A stretch of DNA of 62,496 bases, counting the filler. It is 8 parts of 8 records of this genome, joined end to end, with 100 filler letters (N's around TTAATTAATTAA, not from the genome) between each part and the next. Parts side by side here need not be neighbours in the genome. Positions count along the whole stretch, not along the records: positions 34,072 to 40,138 come from SRR31147125_115947; 7 more parts are not named here. One strand, given 5' to 3'. Of the stretch, positions 33,972 through 40,238 are shown in pieces. Both the position numbers and the translations under genes were made by a program. The stretch's first letter is position 1. Each line of letters begins with the position of its first letter. Below the pieces are notes generated by a model. That model was not told where the DNA came from. It was given only the letters and a program-made list of their open reading frames with translations, and did no database searches.

Positions 33972-34071
33972 NNNNNNNNNNNNNNNNNNNNNNNNNNNNN
34001 NNNNNNNNNNNNNNNTTAATTAATTAANNNNNNNNNNNNNNNNNNNNNNNNNNNNNNNNNNNNNNNNNNNN

Positions 34072-34724
34072 ACTTCAGTAATTCCGAATGTTTCCAGCAG
34101 CGGGGGGAAATCCTCAACTATATTACCCATCTTGCAGTTCTGCCACATGGATCCTTTCAGAAACCGCACACCTGAATCAGTAAACTGAATATGGGTCAGT
34201 TCGGTTCCGAACATTTCAAGCTTTTCCTGAACCGCCCTAAGCAGCACGGTACTTTTCCCTGCTCCTGAACCGCCGAGTACCAGAATCAGGCGATCTGTAC
34301 CGGGAACGACAAAGCTGGTGGAGTGGAAGGAGAATATTCCGCGTTCCTCAAGTTCATGCACCAGAATCTTAGAGAAAATCCCCATATTGCCGAAAATGGA
34401 GGCTCGTTTATCGCCGCAGTTCTCTTCCAGATCACGTATGGGACCGCTGAACAGGTACTCTGTCACCTTGCCGGCTTCATCGGTAACGCGCTCAAAATTC
34501 AGTTCATCGGTATTATTGTCATCAATCCGCACGGTGAATTCGGGTTTCCAGTCCAGGTCTTGTTCATCAGCTTCGATTAATGCGTGGAAATTTGAGAGCA
34601 GTGAATGCAGGTGTGCTCCAACACTGAAAAAATATTCATCATCCTGGATTATCCCCTGATAATTGGATTCCAGAATAAATTTCATACCCAATAGGGAAAA
34701 TCTTCTTGAATACTGCTGCTTCAT
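34072..34724 (-). CDS. Uncharacterised P-loop protein, HPr-kinase/PEPCK-like (3' truncated)
   Basis: FSFHSTSF followed by LILVLGGSGAGKSTVL (His plus Walker A spacing as in HPrK-like proteins). Start overlaps the upstream stop (ATGA). Confidence 0.55.
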
Positions 34725-35978
34725 ACTTCCACCTCCGCATATTCCCGTACCATCGGCAGAACCGACGATCCGTTTTCAATTATTGCTGTATCACTTTTGA
34801 GCATTCTCATGATCTGCTCCAGATGTTTTTCATTCTCTATATACTGCATTCCGGCCGCTTCAACTTCTTCCCGCGGCAGTGATGACATGAACCAGACGTT
34901 GTATCCGCGAATAATCTTCAGTGCCATATAGAGTGCCAGGCCATCCATCGAAAAATCTTTCTGGAGGGTTCGGGCTATTTCTGCCAGATCCATTGAAAAA
35001 TAGCTGAACAGCTCTTCCCTTATTTCCCAGCCCTTTGTGCAGTCGGAAAGAATAATCAGATTCCCGCCGGATTTGCAGGCTCGGCTGGAATTGGTCAATA
35101 CTTTCATTGATTGGTAAAACGAGATATCAGAGGGGGTTCCCCCTGCCGACGCGATTACCGTATCGTACTGTTTTTCTATGCTGGCAGCATGCATTTCGGC
35201 AACATAGCAACAGCAGCGTTCCCAGACATCATCCACCATACCGCACGCGGCAAACTCAATCTCATTTTTTTCGGTCAGAACAACATTTAAGGCCCATACC
35301 TCTCCGCAATCTGCTGTTTTATCACGAATATCTTCGCTGACTGGATTCCCGGATATAGTACCGGGTCCTACTCCGTCATGTACTTGCACACCGTCAAAAT
35401 AACGTTGATGATTTGCATAGATATCCTCAGCCGATGCTATGCCGGGCAGCAGGCTTTTGCGTCCCCCCGGAAAACCCCGCCATGGGATGAAATGTAACTG
35501 CACCAGTTACAATTAGTTTGTCAGCCTGCATGGCTTCTGTATTGAAACGTGCGCTGCCGACGGTTGTCAGATTGTCATACGCCGAATGGTTGCAGACAGT
35601 AACGTCTGCCGGTAATGGTCCGCCGCAGATTCTCTCGATTTCCTGCCTGGTTGAAGGTCGATGCAGTCCCAGCGCTACAATGATCGTTATGCTGCCGACA
35701 CCGATCTCTTCCAATTTTTTCAGCAACAGCGGAATATAGATATTACTACCGGTCGGTCTGGTATGATCCGATGCCACTATCGCTACCGAATCATCGGGAT
35801 TGATAAAATTTACCAGTCCTGTTTGTGCCGAATCGATATCTGCTTCGGTTAAAATCTGAGAGATGAGTCCGCTCTGTTTGTTAGTCTGCTGCATGGATAC
35901 GGGGTGGTTGGCAATGGTGTCTGCAGCTACTTCTGCCAGAGAAATTACCGTTGATCCGTAGCGGAGGTTTCTCAGCAT
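34721..35978 (-). CDS. LarA-family nickel-pincer-dependent alpha-hydroxy acid racemase/epimerase
   Basis: SDHTRP, ALGLHR, FHPMAGFSGGRKSLLPG (restored by removing one base from the C6 run at ~35463-35468), ANH, FYQSMK. These include the His and Lys residues characteristic of LarA. Confidence 0.85.
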
Positions 35979-36880
35979 TGACCGACCCCCCTATTGCGCA
36001 GAGGTGACTGCGCCCATGCAGCGTGCAGTTCGTTGACTGCGGCATCTATATCGAATAGATATTCAGGAATATGTAATCCATCTGCCCCATTTTGGGCATC
36101 CAACACACTGATGGTTCCGGTCTCCATATCACTTGCTTCCCAATCCAGAACGGTGGTCCGGGTTGAGAAGTATTCGGGATGCACTGCGTAGAGTGCCGAT
36201 GCAGCCGACCACAGAAATGCTTCAGGTTTACCGCTTTCAGCCATGACTGCAGGCGAAAGCAGGTGCTCCTTAACCAAATAGTAGAGTTTATTACTGTATT
36301 GCCTGATTTGCATCAGGTCCTCCAGATTCAGTTTAAATAACTCCGCAGTCTGCATCGGGATAAGCGTGAGATTTGCAGGGTCCATTAAAATTTGCTCAGC
36401 TGCTGATGGATCGACAGAGAGTGTCAGATCGCTTTGATTTTCCCATAGTGCCCTCTGCAATGGAAAATATTGTCCGCCGAACACGATCAGTCTATCCAAT
36501 AGTGTGCGAAAGGTATTATCCATAGCAGTCGCCGCGCTTACATTCGTCAACCTGCCGGTGGTGATCAGGGTTATCTCGTTTGGATTATTCCGAACCTCGT
36601 TTACTATGAATGCTGCGGCATTTTTTCCGCTGCAGACAGGAATATCGGTTCTGCCCATCAAACGCAGCAGCCATGCGGCGGCATCTTCACGGGCCTGTGA
36701 ATCGAATCCATCGATTGTATTGTCGATTTCCTGCATGGTAATTGCCACAATATCGACCTGTTCCTGTGCAAGCAGATACATAAGGGCAAGACCCTCATCT
36801 ATGCTGCCTCCCGGGAGTCCGAATGTCATAGCAGTATCGAAAATCACCCGAATTTTCCGGTTGGGAAGTACTGGATTCAT
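35972..36880 (-). CDS. Nucleoside hydrolase-fold protein, degenerate active site
   Basis: RVIFDTAMTFGLPGGSIDEGLALMYLL and EITLITTGRLTNV are collinear with the intact NH domain of the upstream gene. Confidence 0.72.
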   Translation of the reverse strand: MNPVLPNRKIRVIFDTAMTFGLPGGSIDEGLALMYLLAQEQVDIVAITMQEIDNTIDGFDSQAREDAAAWLLRLMGRTDIPVCSGKNAAAFIVNEVRNNPNEITLITTGRLTNVSAATAMDNTFRTLLDRLIVFGGQYFPLQRALWENQSDLTLSVDPSAAEQILMDPANLTLIPMQTAELFKLNLEDLMQIRQYSNKLYYLVKEHLLSPAVMAESGKPEAFLWSAASALYAVHPEYFSTRTTVLDWEASDMETGTISVLDAQNGADGLHIPEYLFDIDAAVNELHAAWAQSPLRNRGVGQC

Positions 36881-39687
36881 TCGGCACCTCCCAATGAGTA
36901 GTTCGTCGTATTCAGTTCATCAAACCAGGGGCCTTGCGGGTCCATTTTCGGTTTTGACCAGGCTTCATACATAATTTCATAACAGCGGTTGATATCGATA
37001 GTGTAATCCGGCATATGCACCACAGCCCCGCCGTCACCCAATGTCAAATAACCGGCCTCAATCTCCTTGGGAGTCGCGGTAATAGCCACTTCCCTGTCGT
37101 GAAACAGTTCAGGGTATGAAATGTAGAGCGCCGGCAGCAGGTCCCAGAGGTAATCCTGCGCATCTTCAAGCTGATCGGCACTGGAAAGCAGCAGCTCTTT
37201 CATGATGAAGTACTGACGTCTGTCCATTGCCGCGATCGGAGCCAGTTCCGTAAATCCAAAAGGAAATGCGAAACAGATATGAGCATTGAAGATAACAACC
37301 GGGCATTCCGCTCTGAACACCATCCAGGCAGCTTCACCATCTCCCGAAAAATTCACTTCACCGACATTCGTCCAGCCTTTGTAGGGCAGACGATACAGGT
37401 AGCCGCCCATGGTGACGAGCTGTTTCAGATGTCCGAAAAAACCGGTATCATCCTGCTGAGCAACTTTCAAATTGGCCAGCGGGCCTATGGCAATCAGTTC
37501 GATTTCACCGGGATATTCCGCGGCTTTCTCCGCCAGAAATTGGGATGCTTCCGTTACTGCTCCGTCGTAGCCGGCAGCTCCCTTCAGTACCGGGATGTCA
37601 TTTCGCCCCAGCTGGTCCATAAGCCAGCATGTTGCCGGATAGACATCATCGATGGTGCTGTTTCCAAAGGTGGTGGTTATGCCCACAATTTCAATATCGT
37701 CGCGGCCAAGCAGATAGAGGATGGTTTGCCCGTCATCAATGGGTTTTCCGGGAACACCGAATGTATTGTCGCAGTCGATAATCACTTTATGCTTCAATCT
37801 GTAATTCCTCTTCTCAACCTTGTCCTCTGAAGATTTTTTCATCAATTCAGGGGCAGTCTTACCGTCAATATTTACTATATGTTCATCCGCGCCGGCCGCA
37901 ACCAGCATTTCGTATATTTTTTTGTGTCCAAAAGCCGCTGCTTTGTGAAGCGGTGTTCCTTCATAACGGGTATTCCAGAGTTGTGTCGCCAGTCTGTTCA
38001 CATCGACTTCCTGCTCTATCAGGTAGGCGGTGGATTCCTGGTAACCGCGCTCAACGGCATCGTGCAGCAGGCTCTGGCCGCAGATTCCAACTGAACCGAG
38101 CTGAACCTGGTTTGCCTGCAGCAGTTTCAGCATAGCGAGAAATCGTGTATCGCCGGTTTTTTCCTCGATTTCACGTAAGACAGACTGCGGCTGATTCAGC
38201 TGCCGGGAAAAGGTGAGTATTTCTACCACGATATCTGCATACTCTTTTCTCAGCGCATCATGGATTGCTGTCCAGCCCTCTCCCTCTGCCAGGTCGGCAT
38301 CCGTACCGTTATCCAGCAGGATACGTACACATGTCAGTTGGTTTTTCCAGGCCGCGAAATGAAGGGGCGTCGTTTCATTCTCATCCCGCGCGTTCGGGTC
38401 TGCTCCAAACAGCAGCAACATGCTCATGGCATCGGCTGATCCAGAAGCGGCAGCAATATGCATTGCTGTTTTACCATCCTGACCTTGCGCGTCCGGTTGT
38501 ATACCGTTATTCAAAAATTCCAGAACTTTTTCCCAGGCACCATCATGCGCGGCTGAAACCAGGTCGCTTTCCTGTTGTCCTTCCTCAGCAGCAACTCCAA
38601 AGAACAGCTGTTGCTGATTACACGCAACGGTGTGGAGACTGCGGTATCTGCGCATGGTAAGTCCGGTCAATTTTTCTGCCAGTGATTTGAGGGATGGAGC
38701 AGGATTCACCTTCTCTATCAGATCAATCCACTCCTGCTTTATAGCGGACGCGCCGTGCAGTGCACCCGCCACAGCTCCGCCGACTGCCGCTGAACTATCA
38801 TTATCCCGACCGAAATTGACACAGCCGATCACAGTTTCCGCAAAATCGCCCCGGGCGGCACAGAACATGGCAGCGGCAAGCGCCAGCGACTCACTGCCGT
38901 CCGCGAAAAATGGCTGCACCAGCGCGTCATAGAGCTGCTGCCGCAGATCATCCACAGATGCTACTCCAGCCCCCATTTCAACGGCTGTTCGGACCATCTG
39001 CTCGCTTTTCACGGCGACCACGGGATAGAGATTGCTGTTTCGCCAGCCGGATGCTTCTATCTCGCGTTTATAGGCACCGCAGGCCTGAAAAGCCTCTTCC
39101 ATTATCTGCTGCCAGGTAATTTCGGGCTGCATGGCTGCCGCGATCATAGCTGCCGCGAAAGCGGATGCGGTTCGCGCGGTACCGGTTGACAGATAGAGAT
39201 TTTTGAACACATGAGCGAAAGCTTCTTTCGGAGATGCCGGAAAAATTGCCCCGAGAGAAGCTATGCCCATAATGCCGCCGTTAGTCGGTCTGCCGCCGAA
39301 CACCTCTTTTTCATCGCCGTAGATTCCTTTGAGGTAGTACTCCTCAATGAATCCCCGTTCCATATCGCTTTCGGCAGTGAAATAGTATTCGGCAAGCACG
39401 TGGGTGATATCACCCTTTTTCGGCAGCCCGCCGGCATGCAGAGCTGCTTTACCCAGCAGTATTGAAATGCGGGTATCATCGGTGTAGGCACCTGCTTCTT
39501 TGGAGAATGGACCATGATAACTGGGGGTTACTTCGCTGTACGGCAGCAGTGAATCCACTCTGCCGTATCGTTCGGCTATCTCCGTGAAATGCAGACCTTC
39601 AACCGGACCGCCCATGGCATCGCCAATCGCGCTTCCGATCAGAGCTCCGTATATTCTGTCAAACAGTTTATTTGCTTCCACCTGCAA
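36877..39687 (-). CDS. Fusion: ADP-ribosylglycohydrolase + ~6 ankyrin repeats + inosine/uridine-preferring nucleoside hydrolase
   Basis: One uninterrupted 936-aa ORF. AIGDAMG, YTDDT, NGGIM and GRDNDS (ARH); TAMHIAA, TPLHFAA, TPLHKAA (ankyrin); IIDCDNTFG...IDDG, IAIGPLANL, EVNF, LWDL (NH). Confidence 0.9.
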   Translation of the reverse strand: MQVEANKLFDRIYGALIGSAIGDAMGGPVEGLHFTEIAERYGRVDSLLPYSEVTPSYHGPFSKEAGAYTDDTRISILLGKAALHAGGLPKKGDITHVLAEYYFTAESDMERGFIEEYYLKGIYGDEKEVFGGRPTNGGIMGIASLGAIFPASPKEAFAHVFKNLYLSTGTARTASAFAAAMIAAAMQPEITWQQIMEEAFQACGAYKREIEASGWRNSNLYPVVAVKSEQMVRTAVEMGAGVASVDDLRQQLYDALVQPFFADGSESLALAAAMFCAARGDFAETVIGCVNFGRDNDSSAAVGGAVAGALHGASAIKQEWIDLIEKVNPAPSLKSLAEKLTGLTMRRYRSLHTVACNQQQLFFGVAAEEGQQESDLVSAAHDGAWEKVLEFLNNGIQPDAQGQDGKTAMHIAAASGSADAMSMLLLFGADPNARDENETTPLHFAAWKNQLTCVRILLDNGTDADLAEGEGWTAIHDALRKEYADIVVEILTFSRQLNQPQSVLREIEEKTGDTRFLAMLKLLQANQVQLGSVGICGQSLLHDAVERGYQESTAYLIEQEVDVNRLATQLWNTRYEGTPLHKAAAFGHKKIYEMLVAAGADEHIVNIDGKTAPELMKKSSEDKVEKRNYRLKHKVIIDCDNTFGVPGKPIDDGQTILYLLGRDDIEIVGITTTFGNSTIDDVYPATCWLMDQLGRNDIPVLKGAAGYDGAVTEASQFLAEKAAEYPGEIELIAIGPLANLKVAQQDDTGFFGHLKQLVTMGGYLYRLPYKGWTNVGEVNFSGDGEAAWMVFRAECPVVIFNAHICFAFPFGFTELAPIAAMDRRQYFIMKELLLSSADQLEDAQDYLWDLLPALYISYPELFHDREVAITATPKEIEAGYLTLGDGGAVVHMPDYTIDINRCYEIMYEAWSKPKMDPQGPWFDELNTTNYSLGGAE

Positions 39688-39740
39688 TATTCCTTTTCTC
39701 TATCCTTGATTATCCAATTTCTCACTAGTAAAGTTGTAAT

Positions 39741-40138
39741 TCAGTCTTTCAGGTACATCTCAGCCTTAGGCAGTTCCAGCACCTTCAATCCCTTCCATGC
39801 CGCAAATTCACGCAGCGCGGCTTCATGATGTCCGCGCATGATGGGATAATGGTGCTCAAATCCATATTTCGCGACACCTTCCAGAAAATCCGCGCAGGAC
39901 ACTGATTTTCCGTCACACATCATATTCCCGATCCATCCACCTGACCCGGGGTACGGATCTGCTGGACCGCTTACTACTTCACCTTCAACGATAAAGAGTG
40001 AGCTGCCGTCGCCACTGACATGCAGCATGGTGACCGCACCCTTTTTAAATGATATATCTGATGAGAGTCCCGATTTTCGGGCTCCTTCAGGTATACGGCG
40101 GTTCAGGGTATGGTGATAATCAAGAGTCTGCCCTTTTC
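39741..40138 (-). CDS. L-fucose/L-arabinose isomerase family, C-terminal part (5' truncated)
   Basis: GLSSDISFKKGAVTMLHV...FIVEGEVV...GFEHHYPIMRGH. The terminal HH motif is typical of the FucI/AraA C-terminal domain. Confidence 0.65.
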
Positions 40139-40238
40139 NNNNNNNNNNNNNNNNNNNNNNNNNNNNNNNNNNNNNNNNNNNNTTAATTAATTAANNNNNN
40201 NNNNNNNNNNNNNNNNNNNNNNNNNNNNNNNNNNNNNN

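Follow-up and report, generated by a model that had tools for sequence, protein, structure and literature searches.

The sulfoglycolytic transketolase (sulfo-TK) pathway, which consists of SqvD/SftI, SqwGH, SqwI, and either SqwF or SqwD/SqwKL, resembles the operon described here in several ways. According to the available parts of a 2026 review of sulfoquinovose catabolism, it too pairs an SftI-related isomerase with a transketolase of two subunits, is found in strict anaerobes (Spirochaetes among them), and leads to a sulfonated aldehyde that is then oxidized or reduced (PMC12890257). The operon was recognized from a 6,067-bp contig at positions 34072–40138 of a stretch of 62,496 nucleotides (the window), in which eight contigs are joined via N44-TTAATTAATTAA-N44 linkers. 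Sulfo-TK itself ends in C2 sulfonates, which are excreted without desulfonation. The operon studied here differs by adding an ADP-ribosylglycohydrolase (ARH), nucleoside hydrolases (NH), a ketose 3-epimerase-like protein, and a trio that needs a C3 sulfonate, namely LarA, a predicted half-size phosphoenolpyruvate carboxykinase (mini-PEPCK), and ComA; it also has a tungsten-type aldehyde:ferredoxin oxidoreductase (AOR) in place of SqwF/SqwD.

SuyAB is the (R)-sulfolactate sulfo-lyase, and SlcC and ComC form a racemizing pair of dehydrogenases. The net chemistry that we propose is alike: sulfolactate of the wrong hand would be inverted, and sulfite would be β-eliminated to leave a C3 central metabolite. 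The protein families are unrelated, however. Here a nickel-pincer racemase would replace the two dehydrogenases, and elimination would occur from a 2-phospho ester to give phosphoenolpyruvate (PEP) rather than pyruvate, with one ATP spent and PEP repaying it. In the available text of the same review, SuyAB is named as the enzyme that cleaves sulfolactate, and glycyl-radical enzymes and oxygenases are given for other sulfonates (PMC12890257).

Biosynthesis of coenzyme M (CoM) and sulfolactate, which uses ComA and the phosphatase ComB, shares the ComA family with our operon, with scores at or near the equivalog cut-off. The context here is catabolic (importer, hydrolases, and pyruvate kinase), and a predicted PEPCK-fold kinase stands in the place of ComB; no ComC, ComD, or ComE was found in the annotated loci (L001, L002, L006, and the Chloroflexota trio loci described below). 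The Bacteroides ribose-utilization systems also group ribosyl hydrolases (NH and ARH) with sugar-processing genes. The Embden-Meyerhof-Parnas form of sulfoglycolysis (sulfo-EMP) and the fucose-type routes resemble wider modules of ARH and ATP-binding cassette (ABC) genes, which use an isomerase, a Dak kinase, a LacD/YihT-class aldolase, and a YihU-type reductase. Unlike these systems, the loci reported here have YnjB-type ABC import instead of SusC/D, no ribokinase, and almost always a 3-epimerase, and the operon of our contig uses a transketolase/AOR/ComA branch.

We conclude that the contig covers the middle third of a catabolic operon that has 15–17 genes, is conserved, and comes from an anaerobic bacterium; the closest relatives are in Spirochaetales metagenome-assembled genomes (MAGs). 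Our tentative proposal, to which we give somewhat less than even confidence, is that the operon catabolizes an imported ribofuranosidic organosulfonate and ends in PEP and sulfite. All enzyme activities in this scheme, and its ligand, are predictions from sequence.

Conservation of the operon

When an alignment of ARH-ankyrin proteins was used as the seed, species-representative genomes and metagenome contigs each yielded 80 loci (loci are numbered with L, genomes with G). The conserved order was (NH), YnjB-type ABC importer (substrate-binding protein, two permeases, and ATPase), SftI-like isomerase, ARH(-ankyrin), NH1, (NH2), LarA, mini-PEPCK, ComA, split transketolase, AOR, ketose 3-epimerase-like protein, and GntR. 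L001, from a Spirochaetales MAG, was the closest full-length relative of the contig. Its order was ABC ATPase, isomerase, ARH-ankyrin, NH1, NH2, LarA, P-loop protein (the mini-PEPCK), ComA, transketolase N and C subunits, AOR, xylose-isomerase-fold protein, and GntR. L002 and L006 were organized as L001, plus a binding protein and two permeases upstream, and with the second NH at the head of the operon. The full order was present in these three genomes and in metagenome contigs L090 and L097, and fragments of it were found in L089, L110, L121, and L107. A rearranged but complete version (LarA, P-loop, ComA, transketolase, AOR, epimerase, isomerase, ABC, NH, GntR, ARH), with an ARH without ankyrin, was present in L126, L103, and genome G1003. 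G1003 belongs to the phylum of G405, which is other than that of L001, and the nearest P-loop cluster carries the source label Bacillota. Directly after the rearranged operon in L103 were genes for an IstB-like ATPase and a DDE transposase (L103:13504–19134), which hints at mobility. An APH-family phosphotransferase gene (L002:2383–3441), whose product matched methylthioribose kinase weakly (48.5 bits; cut-off 275), headed the operon in L002 only.

No iron-dependent alcohol dehydrogenase, acylating dehydrogenase, or CoA ligase gene was found in the L001, L002, and L006 loci. The binding protein gave only weak MalE matches among PDB sequences, and no functional study was among the papers listed for YnjB or YnjC.

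An earlier note made from the letters of the window (the sequence-only reading) had described the contig as a translationally coupled operon, by inference for catabolism, salvage, or recycling, whose enzyme combination, ARH, NH, and LarA included, is not known from any described pathway. The operon is supported, and our literature search likewise found no pathway that combines the three. The combination is conserved in other genomes, so the reading cannot be dismissed for lack of conservation. Its suggestion of ADP-ribose conjugates or cofactor recycling was not supported: nothing points there, and that reading saw 5 of about 16 genes. Because the partners are a YnjB-type importer, ComA, a split transketolase, an AOR, and a 3-epimerase-like protein, and because the P-loop protein has a PEPCK-like predicted fold, we favor an organosulfonate route ending in PEP and sulfite.

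The P-loop protein

The P-loop protein has the Walker A sequence GGSGAGKST and is 67–68% identical to its L001 homologue. Neither the contig protein nor its homologues in L001, L002, and L006 passed any Pfam or NCBIfam threshold, and none of the four matched PF01293 or PF07475. Among distant members of the family, sub-threshold matches to PEPCK_ATP were obtained for 7 of 17 and to Hpr_kinase_C for 3 of 17. A search of PDB sequences gave nothing usable (best E 0.016). The family comprises 135 representative clusters at E ≤0.001 among 1.84 billion proteins, and all of its named members are labeled "hypothetical".

An AlphaFold (AF2) model of the L001 homologue, built from 49 family members, had a predicted local distance difference test score (pLDDT) of 96.5. 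The top Foldseek matches of this model were ATP-dependent PEPCKs (E 3e-10, probability 1.0, about 370 aligned columns). In an independent all-against-all comparison (VIA-align), PEPCK matched residues 1–330 with Z 12.4 and 278 residues aligned, and HPrK/P matched the C-terminal domain only, with Z 9.0–9.7. Seven PEPCK/HPrK chains had Z values of 12.4–9.0; the remainder began at 6.3 and then fell to ≤4.9. The label "HPrK-like" in the sequence-only reading is thus right at the level of the superfamily, but the whole protein fits PEPCK better. The model suggests a half-size PEPCK fold. The match to PEPCK covers both domains, and the Walker A loop is present; the differences are size (about 330 as against 510–540 amino acids) and membership in a rare orphan family.

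ComA and the LarA/mini-PEPCK/ComA trio

ComA, an operon partner encoded outside the contig, showed a match along its whole length to phosphosulfolactate synthase from Methanocaldococcus jannaschii (1qwg; 156.6 bits, E 8.6e-45). The ComA proteins of L001, L002, and L006 scored 248–253 bits with the Pfam ComA family (PF02679; cut-off 25.2), and two from Chloroflexota passed the arch_ComA (TIGR03849) equivalog cut-off of 280 (L183, 337.4; L192, 285.9). All seven ARH-seeded loci that hold the P-loop gene had the order LarA, P-loop, ComA.

Genome counts for the P-loop family are lower bounds, because five first-look candidates were scored per genome. In the phylum of G404, a genome recorded under the title Chloroflexi, at least 16 of the 401 genomes had the family; the figures were at least 2 of 401 for the phylum of G003 and at least 1 of 401 for that of G405. 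In a second genome of the phylum of G003, a P-loop homologue with one in-frame TGA was found on a 1.6-kb contig (L169, G130:C268:168–992).

Thirteen of the 18 Chloroflexota P-loop places, in 12 genomes, were taken as loci (L182–L194). ComA was present in all 13; it was adjacent in 10, behind a pyruvate kinase gene in one (L192), and 5–9 kb away in two. Eight of the 13 contained a LarA homologue, and none contained ARH, NH, transketolase, or AOR. The order in L192 was GntR, TctA-type transporter, 2-hydroxyacid dehydrogenase, LarA, P-loop, pyruvate kinase (409 bits; equivalog cut-off 306), and ComA. L191 contained pyruvate kinase next to ComA, as well as genes for SsuA-like ABC import, the P-loop protein, and YeiH-family export. 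We conclude that mini-PEPCK and ComA, mostly with LarA, are a module in their own right, and because an importer, a predicted route to PEP, and pyruvate kinase occur together, we argue that it serves catabolism.

Other features of the Chloroflexota loci were noted. An M20 amidohydrolase gene followed LarA in L183, L184, and L187. We asked whether a histidinol-dehydrogenase gene close to the trio might encode an HpsN-like dihydroxypropanesulfonate dehydrogenase and rejected the idea; the L187 copy is followed by imidazoleglycerol-phosphate dehydratase and thus lies in a his operon. An apparent fusion of P-loop protein and ComA in a long open reading frame (ORF) of L182 was also discarded, since the two matches are in different frames.

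The same enzymes could in principle run toward synthesis, with ComA making phosphosulfolactate from PEP and sulfite, mini-PEPCK recovering ATP as it releases sulfolactate, and the other enzymes building a sulfonated sugar. Every characterized ComA works in that direction, in CoM biosynthesis, according to the available part of the source (PMC9457059), and AOR and transketolase are reversible in principle. We nevertheless find a biosynthetic direction very improbable: the operon encodes three hydrolases together with a GntR repressor and an ABC importer, but neither a glycosyltransferase nor a nucleotidyltransferase. In addition, pyruvate kinase adjoins ComA in two trio loci, and no sulfite-reductase domain that would supply sulfite was found in three closed trio-bearing genomes.

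The Chloroflexota loci bear also on the proposals of the sequence-only reading, namely breakdown of ADP-ribosylated compounds or NAD-derived ribosides, or recycling connected with LarA's nickel-pincer cofactor. In their favor, ARH retains its catalytic motifs, ribosyl bonds are the target of both ARH and NH, and nicotinic acid adenine dinucleotide is the source of the LarA cofactor, as stated in the accessible part of the literature (PMC7583248). But ComA, mini-PEPCK, transketolase, AOR, and the epimerase would have no function under this explanation, and the P-loop/ComA module occurs without ARH or NH in every one of the 13 loci. Moreover, of the 160 loci that matched ARH, 12 contain LarA and most therefore lack it, and the operon (annotated L001, L002, and L006 loci) contains no larB, larC, or larE. 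We consider it very improbable.

The LarA homologue

Both Lar_N and LarA_C were above the Pfam threshold across the two LarA ORFs of the contig. When the intact L001 protein was aligned to solved LarA and Mar2 structures (2yjg and 6d6z), SDHTRP, GLHR, H..GFSGGRK, ANH, and YQSxK were all kept; we take these to be the catalytic His pair, the cofactor-tethering Lys, the Ni-ligand His, and the carboxylate-binding residues. Its scores were below the equivalog cut-offs for LarAH10 (245 against 540), the malate racemase LarAH6 (244 against 500), and LarA (216 against 460). The protein is thus predicted to be a 2-hydroxyacid racemase or epimerase of an uncharacterized subgroup. Malate racemases are among the NCBIfam families closest to it, and sulfolactate corresponds to malate as its sulfonate analogue.

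A racemase, an AOR, and a kinase would also fit ordinary scavenging of ribosides or nucleosides without phosphorylation of the sugar. Ribose would pass through ribulose to xylulose, transketolase would yield glyceraldehyde, AOR would yield glycerate, LarA would be a glycerate racemase, mini-PEPCK a glycerate 2-kinase, and the ComA-like protein an enolase analogue giving PEP. In archaea, AOR, glycerate kinase, and enolase form the lower part of the non-phosphorylative Entner-Doudoroff pathway. Within the available portions of the sources, LarA-family glycerate racemases exist (PMC11770544), and ARH and NH occur in Bacteroides ribose-utilization loci (bioRxiv 10.1101/574913). Several points make such scavenging quite improbable: a ribokinase and an enolase would render the whole set redundant, D-glyceraldehyde gives D-glycerate so that a racemase is not needed, the ComA proteins are orthologue-like to sulfite-adding enzymes, and the trio-only loci carry acid or sulfonate transporters and not sugar genes.

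Isomerase, transketolase, and ribosyl hydrolases

The isomerase fragment scored 19.7 bits with Fucose_iso_C, below the Pfam cut-off of 29.3, and is 68% identical to the L001 isomerase. The only NCBIfam match of the full-length L001 protein was to sulfoquinovose isomerase SftI (NF048012; E 6.5e-44, 150.4 bits), which suggests a distant SftI homologue and not an SftI member. Its neighbors in the Atlas were FucI/AraA-like clusters, and a PDB sequence search gave nothing usable. The families named in the sequence-only reading were otherwise borne out by Pfam and NCBIfam (ARH, ankyrin, NH, and Lar_N/LarA_C), the isomerase fragment remaining sub-threshold. The split transketolase of L001 matched generic transketolase models only. 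Its xylose-isomerase-fold protein matched D-psicose 3-epimerase best (190 bits; cut-off 300), followed by weaker matches to hydroxypyruvate isomerase (80 bits) and 2-oxo-tetronate isomerase (70 bits).

An SftI-like isomerase and a split transketolase in one operon might indicate a variant of sulfo-TK for sulfoquinovose or another 6-sulfohexose. Sulfoerythrose and then sulfoacetaldehyde would be formed, AOR would give sulfoacetate, and the trio would process sulfolactate that arrives in another way, for example from an aglycone or by co-import. The reported occurrence of sulfo-TK in strict anaerobes including Spirochaetes (PMC12890257, in the parts available), the weaker matches of the xylose-isomerase-fold protein to C3/C4 isomerases, and the likeness to sulfo-EMP of relatives with a LacD/YihT-class aldolase, Dak kinase, and YihU agree with this. 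Yet the trio would then receive no substrate from the operon, although LarA, P-loop, ComA, transketolase, and AOR genes are contiguous across phyla, and the ribosyl hydrolase and phosphorylase families (ARH, NH, and PNP) would have no role. A gluco-configured sugar needs no 3-epimerase, and a GH31 gene stood beside ARH in one locus only (L092), where it was alpha-glucosidase-like and below cut-off. We therefore hold a sulfo-TK variant to be improbable.

The ARH domain scored far above the ADP_ribosyl_GH (PF03747) cut-off of 26.2 (Table 1) over amino acids 14–318 of the fused ORF and is 72% identical to the L001 ARH. The motifs GDAMGGPVEG, YTDDT, and GRDNDS, whose acidic and Thr residues presumably form a binuclear metal site, were invariant in 19 of 19 aligned sequences. 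By sequence, the best solved relative was the uncharacterized protein MJ1187 (1t5j, E 2.3e-18).

NH1 is 72% identical to the separate NH1 of L001, and NH2 is 39% identical to its L001 counterpart. Both passed the cut-off of 34.2 for the inosine-uridine NH family (IU-NH, PF01156), and a profile of NH1 relatives matched solved NHs with E 1.8e-26. The canonical IU-NH N-terminal motif is DxDxxxDD. In NH1 this motif reads DCDNTFGVPGKPIDD, with the four Asp residues kept and six extra residues between the pairs; in NH2 it reads FDTAMTFGLPGGSIDE, with the second Asp changed to Ala and the fourth to Glu. NH2, described as degenerate in the sequence-only reading, thus keeps two of the four motif aspartates, which in itself does not establish loss of activity. 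By family, the ARH and NH proteins are predicted ribosyl hydrolases.

Wider ARH-centered modules

Among the 46 ARH loci of at least 8 kb whose ARH was at least 35% identical to that of L001, 33 had a YnjB-type ABC importer, 22 an isomerase, and 21 an epimerase-like gene. Other genes in ARH modules encoded PNP_UDP_1 proteins (together with ARH in L012, L014, L098, L104, L118, and L128), NH-like proteins, Dak1/Dak2 kinases, LacD/YihT-class aldolases, and aldehyde dehydrogenases. The L012 aldolase was above the PRK12858 cut-off, and L118 contained a YihU sulfolactaldehyde reductase within its ARH/ABC module (428.5 against an equivalog cut-off of 348). Modules of the aldolase type look, from their gene content, like an isomerase-kinase-aldolase counterpart of the transketolase route, and they too join ribosyl-cleaving enzymes to sulfoglycolysis-type genes.

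A module of YnjB-type ABC importer, ARH without ankyrin, and ketose 3-epimerase-like protein was seen across several phyla (L005, L008, L009, L012, L014, L019, L020, L021, L098, L100, L113, L116, L118, L128, L130, and L143), with isomerase, Dak kinase, LacD-class aldolase, PNP_UDP_1, NH-like, phosphotriesterase-family, and thiolase-like/DUF35 genes as variable partners. MtaA/CmuA-type methyltransferase genes stood beside the ARH module in L108 (8533–11477) and L116 (596–1846), together with a gene for a B12-binding corrinoid protein in L108, and GH42 beta-galactosidase genes lay near it in L019, L108, and L116. A gene for the Bacillota sporulation protein SpoIVA (379 bits) lies at L008:8363–9616, and the MAG title "uncultured Bacteroides sp." looks doubtful. 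The impression that a TauE exporter regularly follows ARH was rejected, the ORF of the same size in L098, L104, and L118 being that of a PNP_UDP_1 protein.

Proposed pathway

In the route that we propose, a charged riboside or nucleoside-like organosulfonate would be imported (step 1), and the ARH and NH enzymes would cut ribosyl bonds to free a sugar blocked at its terminal carbon (step 2); 5-deoxy-5-sulfopentose would be the sugar most consistent with all of the enzymes. The isomerase would convert the sugar to a ketose, and the 3-epimerase would turn the erythro (ribulose-type) form into the threo form (step 3) for transketolase, which requires a threo ketose configuration. Transketolase would move C1–C2 to glyceraldehyde-3-phosphate and leave (S)-3-sulfolactaldehyde (step 4). 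This aldehyde would be oxidized by AOR to (S)-sulfolactate, a 2-hydroxyacid as LarA needs (step 5), and LarA would racemize it to (R)-sulfolactate (step 6). Mini-PEPCK would then phosphorylate the 2-hydroxyl of sulfolactate with ATP (step 7), and ComA, acting in reverse, would eliminate sulfite from (2R)-phosphosulfolactate to produce PEP (step 8). Pyruvate kinase acting on PEP would repay the ATP.

ComA acts on a 2R compound, as its enzyme name states. The sulfolactaldehyde derived from D-sugars is the S enantiomer, according to the available part of the source (PMC12421959). Because the two differ in hand, a racemase is required, and we assigned this job to LarA. Because PEP formation demands a C3 acid, the ketose would be a pentulose with its leaving group on C5. 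From a C5-substituted pentulose, an SftI-like isomerase, and ribosyl hydrolases, we predicted a 5-deoxy-5-sulfo-ribofuranoside as the substrate; this is the weakest step and is hypothetical.

A number of observations weigh against an organosulfonate route. No natural 5-deoxy-5-sulfopentose or sulfonated nucleoside was found in print, and sulfoquinovose, a C6 sugar, gives C4 and C2 sulfonates with transketolase, not a C3 acid for ComA (PMC12890257, available parts). The L001 isomerase is far below the SftI equivalog cut-off (150 against 700), and the L001 ComA, at 267.6, is just under the arch_ComA cut-off; the reverse direction of ComA is inferred from context. One Chloroflexota LarA passed a malate-racemase cut-off (520 against 462), which makes malate a possible substrate. 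The genes larB, larC, and larE, to which the sequence-only reading had drawn attention, were all above cut-off in one of three related genomes (G003, in one cluster) and none was in G001 and G002, in incomplete MAGs from which absence is not implied. A TauE-type exporter stood beside ARH in one locus only (L008), and the sulfite-reductase domain PF01077 was found in one of four operon-bearing and one of five trio-bearing Chloroflexota genomes.

Finally, a thioether nucleoside such as 5'-methylthioadenosine (MTA) suits the carbon logic equally well. In catabolism or salvage of 5'-thio-nucleosides (MTA or S-adenosylhomocysteine, SAH), the carbon route would be the same, and a ComA-like enzyme would eliminate methanethiol or homocysteine from 2-phospho-3-thio-lactate to give PEP. 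NH occurs throughout, the family of MTA/SAH nucleosidases (PNP_UDP_1) is represented in six ARH loci, the kinase gene heading L002 has its methylthioribose kinase match, and a sugar blocked at C5 would explain an isomerase/epimerase route in place of ribokinase. Against these stand the full-length closeness of ComA to genuine phosphosulfolactate synthases and the YihU equivalog in one ARH module. The trio-only SsuA-like importer, YeiH-type exporter, and TctA-type transporter are a better fit for import of a sulfonated acid than of a thioether, and a single nucleosidase would be enough for MTA. We judge thio-nucleosides an improbable substrate and retain the sulfonated riboside as our tentative choice.

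Arrangement of the contig and frame breaks

The contig is one entire contig of a multi-contig record. Because it is complete between its linkers, the genes at both ends are cut, in agreement with the sequence-only reading, which had also noted five co-directional genes and three overlapping stop/start codons. All of the genes are on the minus strand (Table 1), and the overlaps are exactly where that reading placed them: ATGA at 36877–36880 (4 nt), 35972–35978 (7 nt), and ATGA at 34721–34724 (4 nt). Same-strand genes with overlapping or abutting stop/start codons are what a translationally coupled operon shows, and the L001 genes are spaced as tightly. The G+C content of 2-kb windows varied from 0.37 to 0.57 between contigs (about 0.38 at 18–24 kb and about 0.56 at 4–10 kb); given this spread, the record from which the window comes may contain mixed organisms or islands.

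Table 1. Features of the contig and its flanking linkers, in window positions
Feature	Position	Strand	Remarks
Artificial contig linker N44-TTAATTAATTAA-N44	33972–34071	.	Low contig end
Predicted mini-PEPCK P-loop protein, N-terminal 217 aa	34072–34724	-	Cut by contig end; relatives ~330 aa
LarA homologue, C-terminal frame, 260 aa	34721–35503	-	LarA_C 39.5 bits
LarA homologue, N-terminal frame, 183 aa	35427–35978	-	Lar_N 115.6 bits
G6 homopolymer with +1 frameshift splitting LarA inside SGGRK	35463–35468	-	
NH2, second divergent nucleoside-hydrolase-family protein, 302 aa	35972–36880	-	Motif FDTAMTFGLPGGSIDEG; IU_nuc_hydro 81.2 bits
NH1 domain of fused ORF	36877–37797	-	IU_nuc_hydro 111.2 bits; begins at TTG, the NH1 start codon of relatives
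Read-through fusion junction	37794–37839	-	A6 run 37834–37839; TTGA stop/start overlap 37794–37797 out of frame
Ankyrin-repeat domain of fused ORF	37852–38574	-	Ank_2 119 bits and four more ankyrin families above cut-offs
ADP-ribosylglycohydrolase (ARH) domain	38734–39648	-	ADP_ribosyl_GH 134.8 bits; ORF start TTG 39687
FucI/AraA-superfamily aldose-ketose isomerase, C-terminal 131 aa	39741–40136	-	Contig end cuts gene; relatives 473–478 aa
Artificial contig linker N44-TTAATTAATTAA-N44	40139–40238	.	High contig end

Two genes of the contig were not as the sequence-only reading had them. The nickel-pincer epimerase, taken as a single ORF, is a LarA gene in two frames, split by a +1 frameshift: relative to the intact L001 orthologue there is one extra G in the G6 run, and the break lies inside the conserved FSGGRK stretch. 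The N-terminal frame is 55% identical to residues 38–168 of L001 LarA, and the C-terminal frame is 61% identical to residues 157–412.

The fusion of ARH, ankyrin, and NH, a 936-aa ORF with a TTG start at 36877–39687, was found to be confined to this contig rather than an architecture of the family. ARH-ankyrin and NH1 were separate ORFs in all six relatives with listed ORFs (L001, L002, L006, L110, L088, and L089). In a search of 5.8 billion clustered proteins, the NH domain was absent from the 19 closest relatives of ARH-ankyrin (42–67% identity, 522–642 aa), and no protein of 514–1638 aa combined the three domains. The stop codon of ARH-ankyrin overlaps the TTG start of NH1 as TTGA in L110 and L088, and in L001 the TGA stop is 4 nt ahead of a GTG start. 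Alignment of the DNA showed that the contig retains the TTGA with the upstream frame off by one; the ARH-ankyrin stop is therefore read through. The A6 run sits in a short, non-conserved tail just upstream of the fusion point. Beyond it both alternative frames stop after 7 or 14 codons, one of them exactly at the TTGA, and a one-base change in the length of the run would account for the fusion.

Within 6 kb the frame thus changes twice by a single base, once inside a homopolymer and once beside one. The sole public run that contains the contig (X1, share 0.13) has a depth of 2–6, and its contigs match parts of our contig exactly. They cover neither the G6 run nor the fusion junction. We conclude that both frame changes are probably assembly errors or very recent mutations rather than design.

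Relation to earlier work and implications

Our literature searches yielded nothing on a sulfolactate kinase, racemase, or epimerase, or on a phosphosulfolactate lyase, and found neither LarA together with sulfolactate nor ARH with sulfonate terms. Judged by title or abstract, none of the papers listed on phosphosulfolactate since 2019 deals with its catabolism. The terms "ribosyl" and "ferredoxin oxidoreductase" do not occur in the available text of the 2026 review (PMC12890257), nor do "sulfolactate", "ComA", or "COG1809" in the available LarA literature, including two text supplements of PMC7583248. What would be new here is the proposed desulfonation module together with putative gateway enzymes within a probable sulfonate catabolic operon, for which we found no description in print.

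A more far-reaching set of claims would be that LarA, a mini-PEPCK 2-kinase, and reverse ComA constitute a third bacterial means of sulfolactate desulfonation, ATP-coupled and independent of oxygen and radicals; that ARH proteins are the gateway glycosidases of widespread YnjB-type import; and that natural sulfonated ribofuranosides (5-deoxy-5-sulfo-ribosides, or "sulfonucleosides") exist that are as yet undescribed. Taken together, we think these unlikely to hold.

Organosulfonates are a large share of biospheric sulfur. If the proposal is true, the trio would open all three carbons of sulfolactate, as PEP, to fermenting anaerobes. It would also provide a first function for an orphan PEPCK-fold family and a catabolic role for ComA, and would add a sulfonate to the substrate range of LarA, which might account for "malate racemases" lacking a physiological context. 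From the upstream half of the operon one would predict a nutrient not yet described and, for bacterial ARH proteins, a role in metabolism.

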